A stretch of DNA of 8,610 nucleotides from a virus. Taxonomy: Duplodnaviria; Heunggongvirae; Uroviricota; Caudoviricetes. The position numbers were made by a program, and so were the translations under genes. Positions 1-6,788 of this stretch are shown here, in pieces. The first letter of the stretch is position 1. Each line of letters starts with the position of its first letter. The stretch lies in IMG/VR virus record IMGVR_UViG_2778261121_000004; one strand, given 5' to 3'. The notes beneath the pieces were generated by a model. It was given only the letters and a program-made list of their open reading frames with translations. It was not told the DNA's origin and searched no databases.

Positions 1-885
1 TTACTTTGCAATGAGATCGGGGTCAACTTCGCTTAACCGGCTTCGTTTTGACAGGTTGCCGGTCTTTCTTTTTTTCACTTTCGCCAGTTCTTCCGCAGAG
101 TAATGCGACGCGACATCCAGCCGTCGAAGCCCCATTTTGATGTACTCGCTGTTGATCTCAATACCAATGAATTTTCGCCCGCTGGCGACGGCTACGGCAC
201 CGGTAGTAAAGCTACCGGCAAACGGGTCGAGAACGATATCGCCTGGGTTGGAAGAGGCGAGAATAACGCGTTTCAGCAAGGCTTCCGGTTTTTGCGTCGG
301 GTGGTTTTCATATTCATCCATCAAATAACGCACGCGCGGAAAATCCCAGACGTTACCCGGTACTTTTTGATGATTGTAAGGCTGTGGAGGATTTTTGCGA
401 TAATTGATCAACGCGCGCTGCGATCCGGTTTTGGCTTCTACCAGAATAGCATCACCGTTGAACGTGTAGTTCTTTGCGTCTTTCACCATCATCAGGATGG
501 GTTCGTACATGGAGCCGTAGTGTTTTTTCGCCTGCACTCCAGAACTGTCATATGACCAGACGATGCGACTTTTGATGGTAAAAAGCTTGCGGCACTGGAG
601 ATCGATAAAGGGCATGTTTTCCGTGCTATTCATGATGTACATGCTGCCCTGCTTTTTCAGAACGCGATGGCACTCTGCAATCACTTCAAACAGCCAGTCG
701 ATAAACAGATCTTCTTTCCAGGCTTCGATCAGACCATCAAAATTTTTACCGATGTTATACGGTGGGTCGGCAAAGATCAGATCGACACTTTCGGCGGGGA
801 GCTTTTTAAGTTCGGTTAATGCATCACCCTGGATGATGGTCTTTGCTTCATTACCAAATCGGGTCGGTTCACATCCTGTTCTCAT
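1..885 (-). CDS. yhdJ: DNA adenine (N6) methyltransferase YhdJ, complete
   Basis: 294-aa ORF with the DPPY catalytic motif (FADPPYNIG) and an AdoMet-binding C-terminal motif (VLDPFAGSFTTG). The sequence matches what I recall of enterobacterial YhdJ. ATG at 885 is preceded by AGGGAG with a 5-nt spacer; the track's GTG at 891 is 2 codons upstream. Stop at 1..3. Confidence 0.9.
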   Translation of the reverse strand: MRTGCEPTRFGNEAKTIIQGDALTELKKLPAESVDLIFADPPYNIGKNFDGLIEAWKEDLFIDWLFEVIAECHRVLKKQGSMYIMNSTENMPFIDLQCRKLFTIKSRIVWSYDSSGVQAKKHYGSMYEPILMMVKDAKNYTFNGDAILVEAKTGSQRALINYRKNPPQPYNHQKVPGNVWDFPRVRYLMDEYENHPTQKPEALLKRVILASSNPGDIVLDPFAGSFTTGAVAVASGRKFIGIEINSEYIKMGLRRLDVASHYSAEELAKVKKRKTGNLSKRSRLSEVDPDLIAK

Positions 886-910
886 GGTCACTCCCTTTGT
901 GACACCTATA

Positions 911-946
911 AAAAAGGCGCTTCCCCATGCCGAGTAGCGCCTTTTT
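911..946. terminator. Bidirectional rho-independent terminator hairpin, probably the native fis terminator
   Basis: Stem GGCGC (916-920) pairs with GCGCC (937-941), flanked by A5 (911-915) and T5 (942-946). On the minus strand it reads as a GC stem followed by a T-run, between the fis remnant and yhdJ. Confidence 0.55.
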
Positions 947-970
947 AATCAAGCATTTAGCTAACCTGAA

Positions 971-987
971 TTAGTTCATGCCGTATT
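971..987 (-). other. Remnant of fis 3' end (Tyr-Gly-Met-Asn-stop); probable attachment-site core and island boundary
   Basis: Plus-strand ttagttcatgccgtatt is the reverse complement of AATACGGCATGAACTAA, which encodes ...YGMN-stop, the C-terminus of Fis as I recall it. It lies 85 bp upstream of yhdJ, where fis natively sits. The next in-frame codon upstream is a stop (986-988), so only the last codons are present and the sequence diverges into island DNA. Confidence 0.5.
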
Positions 988-1115
988 AACAAAAGCGGTG
1001 TTTTTGCTCGTTTATACCAGTTCAATGTTGTTCACATAACATTATGATTTTACTGGTTTACTCCTTATTTCTTGTTCATTACTTCGTGCTGTTGTTCGTC
1101 TTCGTACATAACAAT

Positions 1116-1137
1116 GTGTAGTCAGCGGTGTAGTCAG
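1116..1137 (+). repeat. Tandem direct repeat GTGTAGTCAG x2 upstream of int; candidate recombinase arm-type or regulator binding sites
   Basis: Exact 10-bp copies at 1116-1125 and 1128-1137, about 45 bp upstream of the int start codon. Confidence 0.45.
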
Positions 1138-1182
1138 TGCTATGCTGTTTCTTAAATGAACTAACTTTAAAGGCTCATAGCT

Positions 1183-2406
1183 ATGGCCGGTGGAACGAAC
1201 AAATTAAGCGATGCATCATTGCGTAAAATGATAGGCCGTGCCAGTCCCTCAGACAACTTTTATGCAGATGGGGATGGCTTAAGCATAAAAGTGTCAAAGG
1301 TTGGTGTTTTAACCTGGTACTTCACCTGGCGAACAGGAGGACGCTCAACCGCTCCCCAGCGTCTAAAGCTGGGAAACTATCCAGATCTTTCTATAAAGGC
1401 CGCGAGAGAAAAGCGAGAACAATGCCGCGCGTGGTTGGCTGAAGGGAAAAGTCCAAAGCATCAGTTCAACATTACTATGCAAGAGACGCTAAAGCCGGTG
1501 ACAGTGAAGGAAGCTCTGGAGTACTGGATCACAGAGTACGCCAATGATAACCGGGCGAACGTCGAGCGACATAAGGCTCAATTTGGAAAACACATTTATC
1601 CTTACATCGGAAATCATCCCCTTGCCCTTTGTGAGACGCGCCATTGGCTAGAGTGCTTTGATCGCACAAAGAAAGAATCACCAGTAGCTTCCGGCTATCT
1701 CCTCCAGATGTGTAAGCAGGCGCTTAAATTCTGTCGTGTTCGTCGCTATGCAATAAGTAATGTGCTTGATGATCTCACCGTGCAGGATGTAGGCAAAAAG
1801 CAGAGAAAACGAGATCGGGTACATACCGATCAGGAAATATGTGATATCTGGCATGCCATGTCAGGCAAGAGGTTTAAACCTTACTATGCCTCGTTACTCC
1901 AGATCCTGATCATGTTTGGATGTCGTTCACAAGAGGCGAGATTATCAGAGTGGAGTGAGTGGGATTTCAAAAACTGGATCTGGACTGTTCCAAAAGCACA
2001 TAGTAAAGGTGGTGAAAAAATAGTTCGCCCGGTCCCGGAGGCCGCCAGACCTTTTATCGAATCCTTGTTCAAGCAACATAAAGATAGCGGTCTTCTGTTA
2101 GGCGAAATCAAGAAACCGGAAGCGGTCAGCCAGTGGGGGAGAACTTTGTATAAGAAGCTCGACCATACAGAGTCATGGACTCTTCACGATTTACGCCGGA
2201 CTTTTTCCACTACGCTTAATAATATAGGGATTGCACCACACATTGTAGAGCAACTCTTAGGGCATACCTTAGGCGGCGTGATGGCTATTTATAACCGAAG
2301 TCAGTACCTGCCTGAAAAACTTGACGCACTGAATAAGTGGATGGAACGGTTAGGATTGCTTACCGCCAATCATACGAATGTAACTATTCTAAAGGTAGCA
2401 AAATGA
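1183..2406 (+). CDS. int: Site-specific tyrosine recombinase/integrase, P4-like
   Basis: 407 aa. N-terminal arm-binding-type domain, and C-terminal catalytic signature: box I Arg (FGCRSQEA), HDLRRTF, LLGH, and catalytic Tyr in AIYNRSQY. SD AAAGG sits 9 nt upstream of ATG 1183. Confidence 0.92.
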   Translation: MAGGTNKLSDASLRKMIGRASPSDNFYADGDGLSIKVSKVGVLTWYFTWRTGGRSTAPQRLKLGNYPDLSIKAAREKREQCRAWLAEGKSPKHQFNITMQETLKPVTVKEALEYWITEYANDNRANVERHKAQFGKHIYPYIGNHPLALCETRHWLECFDRTKKESPVASGYLLQMCKQALKFCRVRRYAISNVLDDLTVQDVGKKQRKRDRVHTDQEICDIWHAMSGKRFKPYYASLLQILIMFGCRSQEARLSEWSEWDFKNWIWTVPKAHSKGGEKIVRPVPEAARPFIESLFKQHKDSGLLLGEIKKPEAVSQWGRTLYKKLDHTESWTLHDLRRTFSTTLNNIGIAPHIVEQLLGHTLGGVMAIYNRSQYLPEKLDALNKWMERLGLLTANHTNVTILKVAK

Positions 2407-3158
2407 CAAAAAGTGAATGGCCTCGCGTATATTACCCTCTTGATCTTGCTGCCAAAAAGATGAATTGTTCCACTGAGGATATATTGCATCTAGGGGCCAC
2501 AAATAGACTGGAAATATGCGCATATATTAAAGGTGTGGAATTGTCTCCCGATGGTTTTAACTTTAATGTTACTTTTGATGAAGATGACGAATATGTGTTA
2601 AATGAAATAACTGAAAATAAGTGTATTATAAGTGATCTATATCAGATAATACTTTTTGAATATAATGACAACACAATAATTAGCGAAGTTGATTTGAAAC
2701 CACGTGGGTGGTATGCGAATGATTTAAATGGTTTTTTTGCTATGTGTTCAAATGATTTGGTTGACATTGAACTTTCTGGAGGACTCACTTCCTTTGAAGT
2801 GAATATTAGTGAGTTATCTACCCCTAACATTGATGATAGAAAACCCATTGAAATTACCAATATTAATGATCTTGTCATTACTGAAAACATGCTGGTAGTT
2901 ATGGGCAAGGAGATAGAAAACTTTAATGCATCAGTTTCACCAAGTATTAGAGGTAAAATAGACGCCCCAAAAACAGAGGCTAAAAAAGCAGAACTAATAT
3001 ACTGCCTTTTAAAAATGATCCCTGAGTTATCTGGTGTTGATTTAGATAACACTCCGATAACGAAAATTACCTCCATGATAGAAGAAGTTGCAGCAAAAAA
3101 AGGTGTTGCTCTTCCGTCAACGCACTGGCAAACATGGAAAAGGTATTTACGGAGGTAG
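2403..3158 (+). CDS. Hypothetical protein, AT-rich cargo gene, translationally coupled to int
   Basis: 251 aa. ATG 2403 overlaps the int stop (ATGA, 2403-2406) and has an AAAGG SD. The central part is about 28-32% GC by eye, against about 50% for flanking genes. Composition is rich in D/E/N/I/K, which is protein-like. No motif recognised. Confidence 0.6.
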   Translation: MTKSEWPRVYYPLDLAAKKMNCSTEDILHLGATNRLEICAYIKGVELSPDGFNFNVTFDEDDEYVLNEITENKCIISDLYQIILFEYNDNTIISEVDLKPRGWYANDLNGFFAMCSNDLVDIELSGGLTSFEVNISELSTPNIDDRKPIEITNINDLVITENMLVVMGKEIENFNASVSPSIRGKIDAPKTEAKKAELIYCLLKMIPELSGVDLDNTPITKITSMIEEVAAKKGVALPSTHWQTWKRYLRR

Positions 3159-3160
3159 CA

Positions 3161-3190
3161 TGTGATATCACATATAGGTTGTGTGATATC
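3161..3190. promoter_or_regulatory. Operator-like palindrome TGTGATATCACA plus a repeated half-site, upstream of alpA
   Basis: Perfect 12-bp palindrome at 3161-3172. The half-site TGTGATATC recurs at 3182-3190, 21 bp away (two helical turns). Confidence 0.4.
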
Positions 3191-3254
3191 GAACATTGCT
3201 GAACGTGATTTAATAAGAATGCCCTCGAACTTCAATAAACGAGGGCAATACTTA

Positions 3255-3479
3255 ATGAACCAACTTAACACACACCAAAATCATTCCGATCGTATTATCC
3301 GTGAAACCGAATGCCGCCACATGACTGGCCTATGCCGTACTACTCGCTATCTCATGGAGAAAAAGGGGGATTTTCCGGCGCGTCGCCAGCTCGGGGGGCG
3401 TTCTGTCGGGTGGCTCTTATCGGAAATTACCACTTGGCAGTTAAGCCAACCTAAAGTAGAAACCGGCAAAGCGGCATAG
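3255..3479 (+). CDS. alpA: AlpA-family phage transcriptional regulator (excisionase-like HTH)
   Basis: 74 aa. The C-terminal half (GGRSVGWLLSEITTWQLSQ) matches the AlpA family's conserved (G)xRSVGW...EIxxW motif. SD GAGGG (3241-3245) lies 9 nt before ATG 3255. The track's longer GTG-3162 form would add 31 uncharacteristic residues and bury the palindrome in coding sequence. Confidence 0.8.
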   Translation: MNQLNTHQNHSDRIIRETECRHMTGLCRTTRYLMEKKGDFPARRQLGGRSVGWLLSEITTWQLSQPKVETGKAA

Positions 3480-3496
3480 GTGCGGATATGTCACAT

Positions 3497-3524
3497 AAAA
3501 CAAAAGCGGCCTTGCAGGGCCGCC
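3497..3524 (-). terminator. Rho-independent terminator for the minus-strand RHH gene
   Basis: GC hairpin GCGGCC (3507-3512) / GGCCGC (3519-3524) with a 6-nt loop. On the minus strand it is followed by TTTTGTTTTA (complement of 3497-3506). No T-run on the plus side. Confidence 0.45.
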
Positions 3525-3615
3525 AGTGCAATCACACTAAACCTATTCATATCACCAGGCTGATCGCTGGTGGTCAAATCGTGAGCAAAGCTCTAAAAAT
3601 AGCTTCGGAACAAAA

Positions 3616-3795
3616 TCAGCCTTTTGGCTCGATGCCACGTTGCTTCAGTTCTTTACGGACAATTCGTTTGATCCAAGCGGCTAAAGACTCGTCACCGTCC
3701 TGTTGTTGGGCTTTTTCCATTAATTCTCTGAGTTCCGGATCAAGCCGGAATTGGAATGGAGGATTGCCTCGCCTTTCATTTTTGTGTGTTGACAC
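3616..3795 (-). CDS. Small ribbon-helix-helix-like DNA-binding protein; candidate repressor of the island
   Basis: Absent from the ORF track. Minus-strand translation is VSTHKNERRGNPPFQFRLDPELRELMEKAQQQDGDESLAAWIKRIVRKELKQRGIEPKG (59 aa), with a beta-strand then two helices as in RHH proteins. GTG start at 3795 has an AGGTG SD 8 nt upstream. It is the only minus-strand gene in the island and is divergent from the downstream operon. Confidence 0.5.
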   Translation of the reverse strand: MSTHKNERRGNPPFQFRLDPELRELMEKAQQQDGDESLAAWIKRIVRKELKQRGIEPKG

Positions 3796-3841
3796 GTCAA
3801 TTACACCTGTTGTAGTGTGTTTATGTGTAATGACACATTAC
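3789..3841. promoter_or_regulatory. Divergent promoter/operator region between the RHH gene and the Icd-like operon
   Basis: Inverted repeats TTGAC-ac-GTCAA (3789-3800, overlapping the RHH start) and GTAATG-aca-CATTAC (3827-3841). TGACAC recurs at 3790-3795 and 3831-3836, and there are several TGTGT runs. Confidence 0.35.
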
Positions 3842-3924
3842 ATACAAATGACAAAAAAGACAACGCCCCGGAGTGCGGGAACACTGCCGAGGCGTCTAAC
3901 CAAGACGTTAAATGGAGTAACGCT

Positions 3925-4131
3925 ATGGCTTCCGCTAATAGTACCACATCCGCGCGCCCTGAAAATCGCGTGTTTCTCTTCCTTGCCTTATCCCGTGCCG
4001 ATCAGAACGCCAGGCCACACCGTGAGCAAGTTATTGCCACCAGCGAACGCGAAGCGCGTCTTATGCTGGTGGGCCGCTACGTGCTTTCTTTTGCTGGTCG
4101 CCTGCCAGTATCAGAGGCTTATCATGAATAA
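3925..4131 (+). CDS. Small protein, Icd-like (P4 immunity-region cell-division-inhibitor-like) family, paralogue 1
   Basis: 68 aa. SD GGAG (3914-3917) lies 7 nt before ATG 3925. It shares the pattern F-x-[FL]-F-x-A...AD...A-x-[ST]-E-x-[ED]-AR...L-x-G...L-[ST]-F-x-A-[RK]-L with the 4519 gene. The family name is from memory, not a search. Confidence 0.6.
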   Translation: MASANSTTSARPENRVFLFLALSRADQNARPHREQVIATSEREARLMLVGRYVLSFAGRLPVSEAYHE

Positions 4132-4522
4132 GCCAATTACCGCTGCTGCTTACCTGCTTCACACTGCTGATATGTGCGCCTCGCAGGTGTGCCAACTGGT
4201 TGAATGCCACGACGCCGCCGGACACCATGCGCTATGTCAGACCTTATCGGCGGGGCTAATCGCGCTTAAGCTGGCTTGTTATGCGGATATCCAGTCTTCA
4301 CCAGACGCGGAAACAATACCGCCGCTTAGCCTGGAGGCTTACTGGCCTGATAATAGTTTGACGCTGGAATACTGCGAATCACTGGTAAAGGTGCTGTCTG
4401 TTGATGCCTTGCCCCGTGAAGTGATCCAGCCGCTTACCGGGCTGTTGCATGACCTGGTGAATATGCTGGCCGACCAGTGGAAAGAAGAACTGAAAACCAC
4501 AGATGCAGGGGGGCAATCATGA
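4124..4522 (+). CDS. Hypothetical protein (132 aa)
   Basis: SD AGAGG sits 6 nt before ATG 4124. It overlaps the upstream stop by 8 bp and the downstream start by ATGA. The upstream part of the track's 344-aa ORF (3488-4123) has non-protein-like composition and overlaps the minus-strand RHH gene. Confidence 0.6.
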   Translation: MNKPITAAAYLLHTADMCASQVCQLVECHDAAGHHALCQTLSAGLIALKLACYADIQSSPDAETIPPLSLEAYWPDNSLTLEYCESLVKVLSVDALPREVIQPLTGLLHDLVNMLADQWKEELKTTDAGGQS

Positions 4523-4809
4523 ATAAGTTCACCTGGCTTTTTCAGGCTATCTACGCCGACCACCAGCCCCCTGTTGTTATGCGCACACAGGCTGATACCG
4601 AAGAGGATGCCCGCCGCCAGCTTTCCGGCGCATGGTCCTTAACATTTGTCGCCAAACTTAATACGGCCTGCCCGGTTAACCATCAGTTTTACGCAGAAGA
4701 AGATCAATCCATGTGGGGGATCGTTGCCACCAGGCTGACTCATGACGACATCACGCAGTGGGGCAATGAGGTGTTCGGGAATCGTAATAACTTGCGAGCT
4801 ACCTGGTAA
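4519..4809 (+). CDS. Small protein, Icd-like family, paralogue 2
   Basis: 96 aa. SD AGGGGGG sits 5 nt before ATG 4519, which overlaps the upstream stop (ATGA). FTWLFQAIYADHQ...TEEDARRQLSGAWSLTFVAKL aligns with VFLFLALSRADQN...SEREARLMLVGRYVLSFAGRL of the 3925 gene. Confidence 0.6.
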   Translation: MNKFTWLFQAIYADHQPPVVMRTQADTEEDARRQLSGAWSLTFVAKLNTACPVNHQFYAEEDQSMWGIVATRLTHDDITQWGNEVFGNRNNLRATW

Positions 4810-4837
4810 TTCTTCCGGCTAAATAAGGCATTAAATA

Positions 4838-5161
4838 ATGGCTAAAAAAATCAATCAGGTTAAACCTGAGGGCAAAACTCACCCTTTAATTGAGATTAAC
4901 ACCCGCTGGAAAGATAACTGGGGTATCAAAATCACTATTTGCAAGGTGGAAGAAAACCGCGTGATGTATATCCGCGACGGGTACGAACATGAATGCGTAT
5001 GCTCACCGGATCGCCTGCGTCGTGAGTTTTCTTTCCTCCCGGAAGAGAGCAAGGAATGTCAGGCTGCTGCCATCGCCAGAGGCCGTAAACGCGCCGCCGA
5101 ACTGCGTCATAGTTTGCCGGTTACTTTTGGATCGGCTGGCTGGGATAAGGGGCTGGTATGA
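4838..5161 (+). CDS. Small protein paralogous to the N-terminal domain of the downstream Rep ATPase
   Basis: 107 aa. SD AAGG sits 9 nt upstream. The motifs W-K-D-N-W-G-I-K-I and RHSLPVTFGSAGWD match W-E-E-D-W-G-L-K-I and RHNLPITYGSDGFD in the N-terminus of the 5158 gene. The stop overlaps the next start (ATGA). Confidence 0.65.
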   Translation: MAKKINQVKPEGKTHPLIEINTRWKDNWGIKITICKVEENRVMYIRDGYEHECVCSPDRLRREFSFLPEESKECQAAAIARGRKRAAELRHSLPVTFGSAGWDKGLV

Positions 5162-6573
5162 AGAACGCGCCGAATCTTAAACATCAACCGAAAGATAAAC
5201 ATGTTGAGGTCATTATCTTTGCCGGGGCTGATGCCTACGATCACGCTAAAACATGGGAAGAAGACTGGGGATTAAAAATTGCCGCAGATAAAACACCGCC
5301 TGTCTGGCTGGGGCCAAAGCAACTGGCAGAGCTGGCGAACCTGAACATTATCGACCAAGGGCGTAAGTACGCCCGCGTCTATCTTGCCGGAGACATTGAA
5401 TCTGTCCGGATTAACTCCATTGCTGAAAAACTGGCGCTGGCGGGCGTAGAGGAAGCGAAATTATATAAGGGAATACCTGATAAGCACCCGGAAGACTGGC
5501 ATGATTATCTGGGACGCCTACGGGGCGCTGCGGAGGTGCAGGAGGATGCGAATACTACCCGGCATAACTTGCCGATCACTTATGGATCAGATGGATTTGA
5601 CCGGGAGCAGGACTACACGCTGAAGAATTATCTTCCCGCTAACAGTCTGTGCAGTATTTACGGCCCCAGCGGAAGTTATAAAAGTTTCCTTGCTGTGTCG
5701 TGGGCCTGCCATATTGCCGCAGATCGTAAGTGGGCTGGTAAAAGTGTTTCTGGTGGTACGGTTATGTACATTGTCGGGGAAGGTGGGATCGGTGTGCCTC
5801 GCCGGGTAAAGGCATGGGAAAATATTCACCAAAGGAAGGTAACCAACCTGGCCCTGGTTAACCGTCCTGTTTTTCCGGTGCGTTGCGAGGAGGTGCAGGA
5901 AGTGGTTAAAGCTGCGCGTGATATCCAGAAAGAAAAGGGGCAGCCGGTACAGTTGATTGTTATTGATACTCTTGCTCGTTGTTTTGGTGGTAACGATGAG
6001 AACGACGCGAGAGACATGGGGGCATTTATCGAAGGGTGTGACACCATTAAACGAGAAACAGGGGCCACTGTGCTGGTGGTACATCATTCGGGGAAAGACG
6101 ATAGTAAAGGCGCTCGCGGATCCAGTTCGTTCCGTGCCGCTCTGGATGCAGAGTTTAATGTTAGGCGTGAAGGAGATGGTGGGGCCATTATACTTACCTG
6201 TACAAAAATGAAGGATGCAGAAGAACCGCGCCCCGCCGCCTTTGACCTGAAAACGGTGAACCTGTTTACTGATCGCGATGGTGAAGCAGTTGCTTCTCTT
6301 GTGCTACATGATGTGGAGCGTGAACCACGCGACATTGATCCAGAACTGGCTGACGTCAAACACCTGACTGAGAACCATGCGGCGTTGTGGCAATGTATTC
6401 GGAGCAGAAAGGCCAAAGGTGAGGTATGCAACCGTGCTGTGCTGCGTGACGATATCATAGCGATGGAAGGGGAGAACGGGCGGAAAGCCTTTACACGTTG
6501 GCTGAATAAGCTGGTCAAAGATGGGCTAATCAAAATTGATGACAGTGGCGAAGTAATTATGCTGAAGGGCTGA
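5158..6573 (+). CDS. Replication initiator ATPase/helicase, RecA-like P-loop NTPase (RepA/AAA_25-type) with N-terminal domain of unknown function
   Basis: 471 aa. P-loop GPSGSYKS (around nt 5662-5685), Walker B QLIVIDT, and the downstream VLVVHHSGKD motif typical of RepA/DnaB-like RecA-fold ATPases. SD AAGGGG sits 5 nt before ATG. The gene is followed immediately by an iteron array. Confidence 0.85.
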   Translation: MKNAPNLKHQPKDKHVEVIIFAGADAYDHAKTWEEDWGLKIAADKTPPVWLGPKQLAELANLNIIDQGRKYARVYLAGDIESVRINSIAEKLALAGVEEAKLYKGIPDKHPEDWHDYLGRLRGAAEVQEDANTTRHNLPITYGSDGFDREQDYTLKNYLPANSLCSIYGPSGSYKSFLAVSWACHIAADRKWAGKSVSGGTVMYIVGEGGIGVPRRVKAWENIHQRKVTNLALVNRPVFPVRCEEVQEVVKAARDIQKEKGQPVQLIVIDTLARCFGGNDENDARDMGAFIEGCDTIKRETGATVLVVHHSGKDDSKGARGSSSFRAALDAEFNVRREGDGGAIILTCTKMKDAEEPRPAAFDLKTVNLFTDRDGEAVASLVLHDVEREPRDIDPELADVKHLTENHAALWQCIRSRKAKGEVCNRAVLRDDIIAMEGENGRKAFTRWLNKLVKDGLIKIDDSGEVIMLKG

Positions 6574-6576
6574 AAA

Positions 6577-6788
6577 GTGCGCGAAAAATGCGCATGGTGC
6601 GCGGAATGGGCTAGAAATACATGTTTTGCGCACTTTCTTTGTATATATACAGAAAAAGTGCGCGGAATGGGTAAAATCATCCTGAAACCCGCATCATTAC
6701 TGGCTTTAGGCAATGCGCACTATGTTTAATCTTGCGCACCTAAGTGCGCGCCCGAATAAGTGCGCGGGAAAATGCGCGAGGTGCGCAG
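6577..6788. repeat. Iteron array with AT-rich tract; candidate origin of replication of the element
   Basis: Eleven copies of the core TGCGC[AG] in about 210 bp: GTGCGCG at 6577, 6597, 6658, 6744 and 6760; TGCGCA variants at 6588, 6627, 6713, 6732 and 6781; TGCGCG at 6773. The 14-mer GTGCGCGGAATGGG occurs twice (6597-6610 and 6658-6671), and TAAGTGCGCG twice (6741-6750 and 6757-6766). An AT-rich tract lies at 6633-6657. Confidence 0.6.

Follow-up and report, generated by a model that had tools for sequence, protein, structure and literature searches.

In Gram-negative phage-inducible chromosomal islands (GN-PICIs) the genes int, alpA and pri are encoded in the same direction, the origin lies downstream of pri and a capsid gene is often present (PMC10111431), and the 'Primase' family of these islands was defined via matches to Pox_D5, D5_N, DUF927 and Prim-Pol (PMC10111431). 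The sequence described here, an 8,610-nucleotide stretch of the Caudoviricetes record IMGVR_UViG_2778261121_000004 in IMG/VR (referred to as the window, with coordinates counted from its first letter), is a small integrative phage-satellite-like island with two translationally coupled genes as its replication module, encoding a 107-aa protein of the DUF4222 family and a 471-aa Rep protein. DUF4222 is widespread in phages and satellites and has no known function, and our literature search found no paper on the function of the family. The present analysis ties the family firmly to replication modules, the new element being a DUF4222 subfamily whose C-terminal tail is a selected copy of a peptide from the helicase core.

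Both open reading frames (ORFs) and the ATGA overlap by which they are coupled were found as the initial annotation had described them, the Rep start codon ATG at 5158-5160 overlapping the stop codon TGA of the small gene at 5159-5161. The parts of the two genes on which the argument is built are as follows (AF2, AlphaFold2; HMM, hidden Markov model).

4838..5161, plus strand: small gene (ORF, 107 aa), encoding a DUF4222 protein with a helicase-like C-terminal tail
4883..5032, plus strand: DUF4222 core of the small protein, residues 16-65, a small beta-barrel (Pfam, predicted fold)
5039..5113, plus strand: long helix of the small protein, residues 68-92, preceding the tail (AF2)
5102..5146, plus strand: tail peptide LRHSLPVTFGSAGWD, residues 89-103 of the small protein, a copy of the helicase-core opening signature (BLASTP, motif HMM)
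5147..5161, plus strand: AAGGGG Shine-Dalgarno-like sequence, 5 nt gap and ATGA overlap (read from the sequence)
5158..6573, plus strand: Rep (ORF, 471 aa), with a Toprim-like N-terminal domain, a linker helix, a RepA-type (AAA_25) core and a C-terminal helical region
5158..5493, plus strand: Rep N-terminal domain, residues 1-112, alpha/beta, Toprim-like (AF2, weak Toprim_3 match, phrog_864)
5500..5559, plus strand: linker helix joining the N-terminal domain to the helicase core, residues 115-134 (AF2)
5557..5601, plus strand: peptide TRHNLPITYGSDGFD of Rep (residues 134-148), the signature at the opening of the helicase core, abutting the AAA_25 match that starts at residue 145

The small protein is a member of the Pfam family DUF4222 (PF13973; 50.8 bits against a cut-off of 27, E=1.2e-13), its residues 16-65 aligning with positions 1-50 of the 53 profile positions, and its core also matches PHROG 285. 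The predicted fold is a Tudor/SH3/KOW-like small beta-barrel followed by a long helix (AF2, fold search); from residue 93 onwards the tail was predicted as coil with low confidence in a single-chain model, with a block-mean predicted local distance difference test score (pLDDT) of 61 for residues 91-100 and 51 for residues 101-107, and with residues 89-92 forming the end of the helix 68-92. When its fold was searched for among viral models, the matches were confined to DUF1653 proteins and to small barrels that are uncharacterised. On the side of Rep, residues 145-315 match AAA_25 (E=2e-40, 138.9 bits against a cut-off of 27), a Walker A motif can be read at residues 169-176 (GPSGSYKS) and RSF1010 RepA (PDB 1g8y) matches with E=1e-4, aligning from residue 151, a combination by which Rep is classed as a RepA-type helicase.

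The sole homologous segment of the two proteins comprises about 15 residues, LRxSLPxxxGSxGxD, which form the junction between the linker helix and the first core strand in Rep and the C-terminal tail in the small protein. In the direct BLASTP comparison residues 86-104 of the small protein align with residues 131-149 of Rep (block 2 in the following) with 10/19 identities and E=3e-5, a value that refers to a single comparison, and local alignment of the 35 C-terminal residues of the small protein with Rep resulted in z=9.5, equalled by none of 200 shuffles. A 23-column HMM of the helicase motif was run against the 5370 ORFs of all fetched loci and retrieved every AAA_25 helicase and then every tail-bearing DUF4222 protein (E 6e-7 to 0.02; the tail of the window scored E=2.3e-4); the one further match was a 5' Rep fragment at the end of a contig (L008, E=0.006), and beyond this there was noise with E>1.

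In an alignment of 42 helicases with three kinds of N-terminal region, no variation was seen at L138, P139, G143 and G146 and next to none at S144 and D148, and proteins in which the Rep N-terminal domain heads a D5_N or DUF927 helicase do not have the motif LPxxxGSxGxD. The motif is thus the signature with which the RepA-type (AAA_25) helicase core opens, immediately behind the linker helix, and not a part of the Rep N-terminal domain, to which block 2 had initially been assigned. The tail of the small protein, which likewise follows a long helix, keeps all six signature positions (L, P, G, S, G and D), and all invariant positions are retained by the tail in at least six small-protein lineages which are 55-88% identical. 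In Rep the motif presumably takes the place of the element before the Walker A helix, like ITTGSxxLD in RAD51/RadA, an assumption for which a weak NCBIfam RadA alignment, beginning at Rep residue 140, can be quoted; RSF1010 RepA, as a solved structure, aligns only past the motif.

For the comparison of each tail with the Rep motif of its own locus, 17 distinct pairs and 15 codons were used, and the proportions of synonymous (pS) and nonsynonymous (pN) differences were 0.81 and 0.23, corresponding to a pN/pS of ~0.3. In most loci of the LPLSVGSDG type, 10/11 residues are identical between the copies and only 2-4 codons are, and thus the identity is held at the protein level. The tail is an old duplicate retained by selection on the peptide, with synonymous sites saturated between the copies. 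Furthermore, the tail variant matches the variant of the cognate Rep (LPLSVGSDG with LPLSVGSDG, LPITFGSEG with LPITFGSEG and LP[VIL][TS]FGS with LPITYGS), while one difference between the copies is fixed, the tail having W where Rep has F or Y. The small gene as a whole encodes a conserved protein, its homologues having a pN/pS between 0.33 and 0.41; in detail, among eight tail-bearing small genes the value was 0.41 for the tail, 0.33 for the barrel core and 0.36 for the helix.

Recent gene conversion as the sole source of block 2 is ruled out in most loci because of the saturated synonymous sites, the longest identical runs in the mostly diverged copies being 4-8 nt. It is accepted for L113 and L114, where the copies share long identical nucleotide runs (27/33 nt in one run), and partly for L112. 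A general rule by which DUF4222 tails would copy the downstream protein was also rejected, as the DUF4222/initiator pairs of phages gave z ~0.

To see which upstream genes accompany which helicases, the gene upstream of Rep was tabulated in 80 IMG/VR loci (L117-L196), which were picked by the Rep N-terminal domain alone and in each of which Rep starts at ~2601.

AAA_25 helicase loci: upstream DUF4222 with tail 14, without tail 1, other family 2
D5-type helicase loci: upstream DUF4222 with tail 2, without tail 16, other family 14
DUF927 helicase loci: upstream DUF4222 with tail 0, without tail 0, other family 31

The tailed form of DUF4222 is found almost exclusively beside AAA_25 helicases: among the loci bearing DUF4222, a tail is present in 14/15 with an AAA_25 helicase and in 2/18 with a D5-type helicase (Fisher p=2e-6, which is an upper bound on the significance, as the loci are phylogenetically related and their independence is overstated). 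The upstream gene overlaps the Rep start by 4 nt in 61/80 loci regardless of its family, and in the remaining loci the nearest upstream ORF, typically of 213-240 aa, mostly stops 10-17 nt before the Rep start. The genes with an ATGA overlap belong to at least 4-5 unrelated families, that is DUF4222 and proteins of 71, 96, 101-102 and 122-137 aa, and in some of those outside DUF4222 the C-terminus is a helix resembling the one of tail-less DUF4222 proteins ('KI..IRAMLVAGGKK' compared with 'KIQNLRALIAAKRAGK').

We tentatively favour, at somewhat less than an even chance, the reading that the small protein is a replication accessory protein which would dock on, or imitate, the helicase via the helicase-derived peptide and would thus act as an accessory subunit or regulator of the helicase. 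That the small protein is an accessory factor or regulator had been proposed before, and as a general idea this stays the best available reading, though not in the form of a copy of the N-terminal domain. Since the order of barrel, long helix and first-strand peptide would mirror Rep's own order of N-terminal domain, linker helix and first strand, the tail would present the same peptide to the same site, and it might occupy the site that is normally contacted by the Rep peptide, be it on an adjacent Rep subunit or on the core of Rep itself. The barrel domain would thereby be tethered to the helicase, and such tethering could either help or limit the assembly of the ring or its loading at the origin. 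A docking peptide is expected to be flexible, and for this reason the flexibility predicted for the tail in the single-chain model was counted in favour of docking.

In a more specific form, which leans on analogy and which we consider unlikely, a DUF4222 subfamily of enterobacterial satellites would have acquired, and by selection kept, the linker/first-strand peptide of its partner helicase, with which it would act in trans on the hexameric RepA-type ring, capping, opening or nucleating it, a kind of self-peptide mimicry like that of the BRC repeats. Two known cases are analogous to the docking reading as a whole: the FxxA oligomerisation peptide of RAD51 is imitated by the BRC repeats of BRCA2, and in DnaB, T7 gp4 and Twinkle it is the linker helix that docks onto the adjacent subunit.

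Besides the relatedness of the tabulated loci, several points weigh against a docking tail. In RecA-fold ATPases the equivalent element is usually a part of the fold and not a free docking peptide, which makes a simple peptide-in-groove model uncertain. The near-identical DNA of the two copies in L113, L114 and L112 indicates that gene conversion contributes to the similarity, and the last residues of the tail, DKG, coincide with the Shine-Dalgarno-like sequence of Rep, so that the conservation of these codons may act in part at the RNA/nucleotide level rather than on the protein. In L020/L117 a small protein 98% identical to that of the window stands beside a D5_N helicase, a pairing that looks like a recent swap, and tails also persist beside D5_N helicases in L017 and L134. 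Likewise, a 75-aa tail-less DUF4222 protein lies beside an AAA_25 helicase with another N-terminal domain (L005), a further tail-less one adjoins an AAA_25 helicase in L193, and in L164 and L172 the upstream slot is taken by a gene other than DUF4222.

The main rival, which is possible but on balance somewhat unlikely, considers the tail as a relic of module shuffling: the first codons of the helicase core would have been left fused to the end of the DUF4222 gene on cassette recombination and would occasionally be refreshed by gene conversion from Rep, with DUF4222 working without the tail. Modules are indeed frequently exchanged at this boundary, where one N-terminal domain is combined with AAA_25, D5_N or DUF927 and one helicase with three N-terminal domains, and the 98%-identical small protein beside a D5_N helicase in L020 agrees with such exchange. 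The DNA-level identity in L113, L114 and partly L112, which indicates conversion, the predicted disorder of the tail and the existence of tail-less DUF4222 proteins beside AAA_25 helicases would also be accounted for. A neutral leftover, however, should decay, whereas the six signature positions are kept in at least six lineages, and recent conversion cannot explain an identity that goes along with the above pS and pN values and mostly 2-4 identical codons per 10 identical residues. In addition, the fixed difference of W in the tail and F/Y in Rep persists, and the tail has decayed where the helicase is of the DUF927 type, as in L002, where a decayed tail goes together with an inserted 79-aa ORF and a DUF927 helicase; the decayed tail beside the DUF927-type helicase reads LRHA----FGTTS--EGAK. 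Finally, a fusion of DUF4222 with a helicase, the supposed ancestor, was found neither in the 58 DUF4222 clusters (almost all <125 aa) obtained by a profile search of 1.84 billion representative proteins, nor among the 120 best helicase homologues, nor in a spacing-constrained DNA pattern scan of IMG/VR.

Quite unlikely, in our opinion, is a shared third partner, i.e. that both Rep and the small protein show the peptide in order to bind one host or helper-phage factor (a loader, primase, single-stranded DNA-binding protein or protease would be candidates), for which the small protein would compete or which it would recruit. A selected, conserved peptide in both proteins and a flexible tail would fit this explanation, as would the tails that persist beside the motif-less D5_N helicases in L017 and L134, which would be understandable if the partner were something other than the AAA_25 core. 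The strong association of the tail with AAA_25 helicases speaks against it, and a tail variant that tracks the variant of the cognate Rep fits better to a co-evolving partner within the element than to a fixed host factor.

Very improbable is an explanation at the level of the DNA, according to which a DUF4222-helicase or DUF4222-Rep fusion isoform would arise either when the copies recombine or by a -1 slip at GGGG 5149-5152. The copies are in codon register, from which we infer that a deletion between them would join the genes in frame. The G run lies downstream of the last stop codon in the Rep frame (TAA 5146-5148) and precedes the ATGA overlap, so that a -1 slip at this place would fuse both proteins, but it is most simply a Shine-Dalgarno sequence. 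The copies have mostly diverged synonymously, with the longest identical runs of 4-8 nt, and the searches of IMG/VR, of the 58 DUF4222 clusters and of the 120 best helicase homologues revealed no fusions. The string GATAAGGGGC at the overlap region is preserved among relatives.

The weakest reading, to which we give hardly any credence, is that of the initial annotation, in which the N-terminal domain of Rep, with an insertion on the side of Rep, has a free-standing paralogue in the small protein, which competes for origin binding. It had been based on two shared motif blocks, of which block 2 is genuine, significant and conserved but lies outside the N-terminal domain. The other one, block 1, is located as follows.

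4907..4933, plus strand: block 1 of the small protein, WKDNWGIKI, residues 24-32, in a beta-hairpin (strands 23-25 and 31-37; AF2)
5254..5280, plus strand: block 1 of Rep, WEEDWGLKI, residues 33-41, inside the helix 26-42 (AF2)

BLASTP reported block 2 only, and block 1, which is present in the sequence, is statistically unusual in the window pair (score 44, z=5, 0/1000 shuffles as good). In 9 other lineages the same comparison resulted in z values from -0.7 to 1.9, the likeness being confined to the window and the L020 lineage. Rep homologues have WEEGLGKQI, WENGFGKEI or WTESEGRK at this position and homologues of the small protein have WKDSAGAKI or WKDNGGAKI, with W28 being variable. Block 1 is thus a lineage-specific coincidence, placed in non-equivalent secondary structure.

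Profile-profile comparison of the DUF4222 family with the Rep N-terminal domain (hhalign, alignments of 60 and 31 sequences) gave a probability of 0.06% and E=0.73, and therefore the two are not paralogues at the domain level: the globular parts of the small protein and of the Rep N-terminus are unrelated. Structure prediction and fold search point in the same direction, with a beta-barrel in the small protein and an alpha/beta domain in Rep that differ in fold and in the order of their elements, so that paralogy of the N-terminal parts is ruled out by hhalign, by the non-conserved block 1 and by the predicted structures. What had been taken for a ~60-aa insertion in Rep between the blocks is an extra spacing of ~36 residues, and the Rep sequence lying between the blocks is the core of a separate alpha/beta domain. 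The supposed competition for origin binding found no support either, as the small protein is unlike residues 405-468, the part of Rep that is most likely to bind DNA.

In the AF2 model of Rep (mean pLDDT 71) an alternating beta-alpha N-terminal domain (17-103) is followed by the helix 115-134, a short strand 140-142, the RecA-type core and three C-terminal helices with a hairpin. By Foldseek the core falls together with RadA/Rad51, the chain as a whole with Twinkle and T7 gp4, and the protein matches phrog_2850 with E=1e-179. The elements of the N-terminal domain are predicted in the order E17-22, H26-42, E48-51, H53-57, E71-76, H82-94 and E99-103, a topology compatible with Toprim, and the domain matches Toprim_3 weakly (E=0.04, 14.8 bits, under the Pfam cut-off of 27.2) and phrog_864 'DNA primase' with E=2.4e-7; sequence profiles of solved structures gave chance-level matches only. 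Toprim motifs consist of a catalytic Glu-Gly and an acidic DxD motif, and at the places where these would be expected, Rep has FAG and GDIE. The domain hence looks like a degenerate Toprim domain, and because of these replacements Rep may lack primase activity, though homologues are labelled 'DNA primase' in databases. As an independent module, 50-87% identical, it heads AAA_25, D5_N/Pox_D5 or DUF927 helicase proteins. At the other end of Rep one further region should be mentioned.

6370..6561, plus strand: C-terminal part of Rep (residues 405-468), composed of three helices and a beta-hairpin (AF2: H405-419, H426-437, H439-454, E458-460, E465-468)

To judge from the model, this region is a candidate origin-binding domain and the most plausible DNA-binding part of Rep. 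In some relatives (L021 3321-4736 and the proteins P0123 and P0130) Rep is split in two, with an N-terminal fragment of 102 aa and a helicase of 354 aa which begins just upstream of the linker helix (MERLREEAE...LRHNLPITYGS), and these are either pseudogenes or natural helicases without the N-domain.

Among 5426 complete E. coli genomes, the window matched a single one, that of strain GPEC1186, with 100% identity. The island is ~8.2 kb in this strain and is flanked by yhdJ and fis, with a fragmented gene of a Rha-family regulator at its end; the 471-aa gene is labelled 'helicase RepA family protein', and the small gene is annotated as 'DUF4222 domain-containing protein'. The other features of the island are listed below.

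8784-16826 in L001: island (window 1-8610)
1183-2406, plus strand: tyrosine integrase (Phage_integrase, Pfam)
3488-4522, plus strand: 344-aa ORF, covering three short RefSeq genes (Icd-like, hypothetical, Icd-like) and an antisense YlcI-like gene
6573-6794, no strand assigned: GTGCGCG-containing repeats, candidate origin, with direct-repeat families D1-D4 and inverted repeats I1-I4, directly 3' of Rep
7561-8610: capsid-like ORF, open at the window end (phrog_617 'major head protein', E=5e-6; no Pfam match)

On the plus strand the order is integrase, a hypothetical gene, an AlpA-type regulator, two Icd-like genes, the 107-aa gene, the 471-aa Rep, the repeats, two small genes and the capsid-like gene, while an Arc/YlcI-like gene is encoded on the minus strand within the window. 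The 344-aa ORF is probably spurious, and the RefSeq start of the capsid-like gene is later than that of the window ORF, leaving 318 aa. Close relatives of the replication module lie within late-gene clusters of prophages in L005, L014 and L018, with genes for a tail tube, for a portal and ClpP, or for a tail fibre adjoining, which fits the configuration of PICIs that are embedded in a helper (HE-PICIs; PMC10111431). Searches for close relatives in species-representative genomes and metagenome scans revealed only distant phage DUF4222 genes.

In the wider family, the DUF4222 gene consistently lies directly upstream of an initiator or helicase gene and overlaps its start in nearly all cases. In prophage-sized contigs of ~17-50 kb (L023-L111, e.g. 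L055 2251-4081) a DUF4222 gene of 58-78 aa without a tail is placed between a cII-like gene (Phage_CP76), which is accompanied by a conserved ORF of ~110 aa, and a replication initiator (HTH_36 + Phg_2220_C), whose start it overlaps by 10-51 nt in nearly all of these contigs. At their C-termini these phage proteins do not resemble the protein encoded downstream. Satellite DUF4222 proteins commonly have a C-terminal 'KI..LR..I' helix, and in a few long proteins of 304-671 aa (P0082, P0085 and P0108) there are 4-6 DUF4222-like stretches in tandem.

If the tail docks on the helicase, this would be a simple route for a mobile element to regulate or assist the assembly of its replicative helicase, and it would provide the first functional handle on DUF4222. 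If it is merely a recombination relic, it would be a clear example of the in-frame footprints left by module shuffling, and of limited interest. Both the 'slot' for a small gene upstream and the modularity of satellite Reps, which is threefold (N-terminal domain, helicase type and upstream partner), can be read directly from the sequence.

Set beside the GN- and HE-PICIs, the island, as known from its genes alone, has the same layout, with Phage_integrase, Phage_AlpA and the AAA_25 Rep all on the plus strand, repeats 3' of rep and a capsid-like gene; it differs in measuring merely ~8.2 kb and in the helicase of its Rep, which is AAA_25 and not one of the Pox_D5, D5_N, DUF927 or Prim-Pol types of PMC10111431. 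With DUF4222/PHROG 285, small proteins of enterobacterial temperate phages and satellites, the small protein shares the core above the curated threshold and, as in the phage members, the position of its gene directly upstream of and overlapping a replication gene. The phage members of 58-78 aa, however, are without the C-terminal helix or tail, and other satellite members of ~90-100 aa end in a 'KI..LR.LI..KRAGK' helix at the place where the subfamily of the window has the helicase-derived peptide.

Rep resembles RSF1010 RepA, T7 gp4 and Twinkle in that its core matches AAA_25 and RepA and its full model aligns with T7 gp4 and Twinkle, and its layout of an N-terminal alpha/beta domain, a linker helix and a RecA-fold core is that of the latter two. 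RSF1010 RepA, in contrast, is without an N-terminal domain, and no alignment to LPxxxGSxGxD is seen for the 20 residues at its start. The N-terminal domain of Rep reaches only 14.8 bits against Toprim_3 (cut-off 27.2) and has FAG in place of the catalytic Glu-Gly. The likeness to the BRC repeats is an analogy only: in both cases a peptide located between the N-terminal domain and the RecA-fold core of an oligomeric ATPase recurs, as a short copy, in a separate protein, and the best structural matches of the Rep core are RadA/Rad51, whereas the peptide copied here is not FxxA and the case described here is known from sequence and predicted structure.

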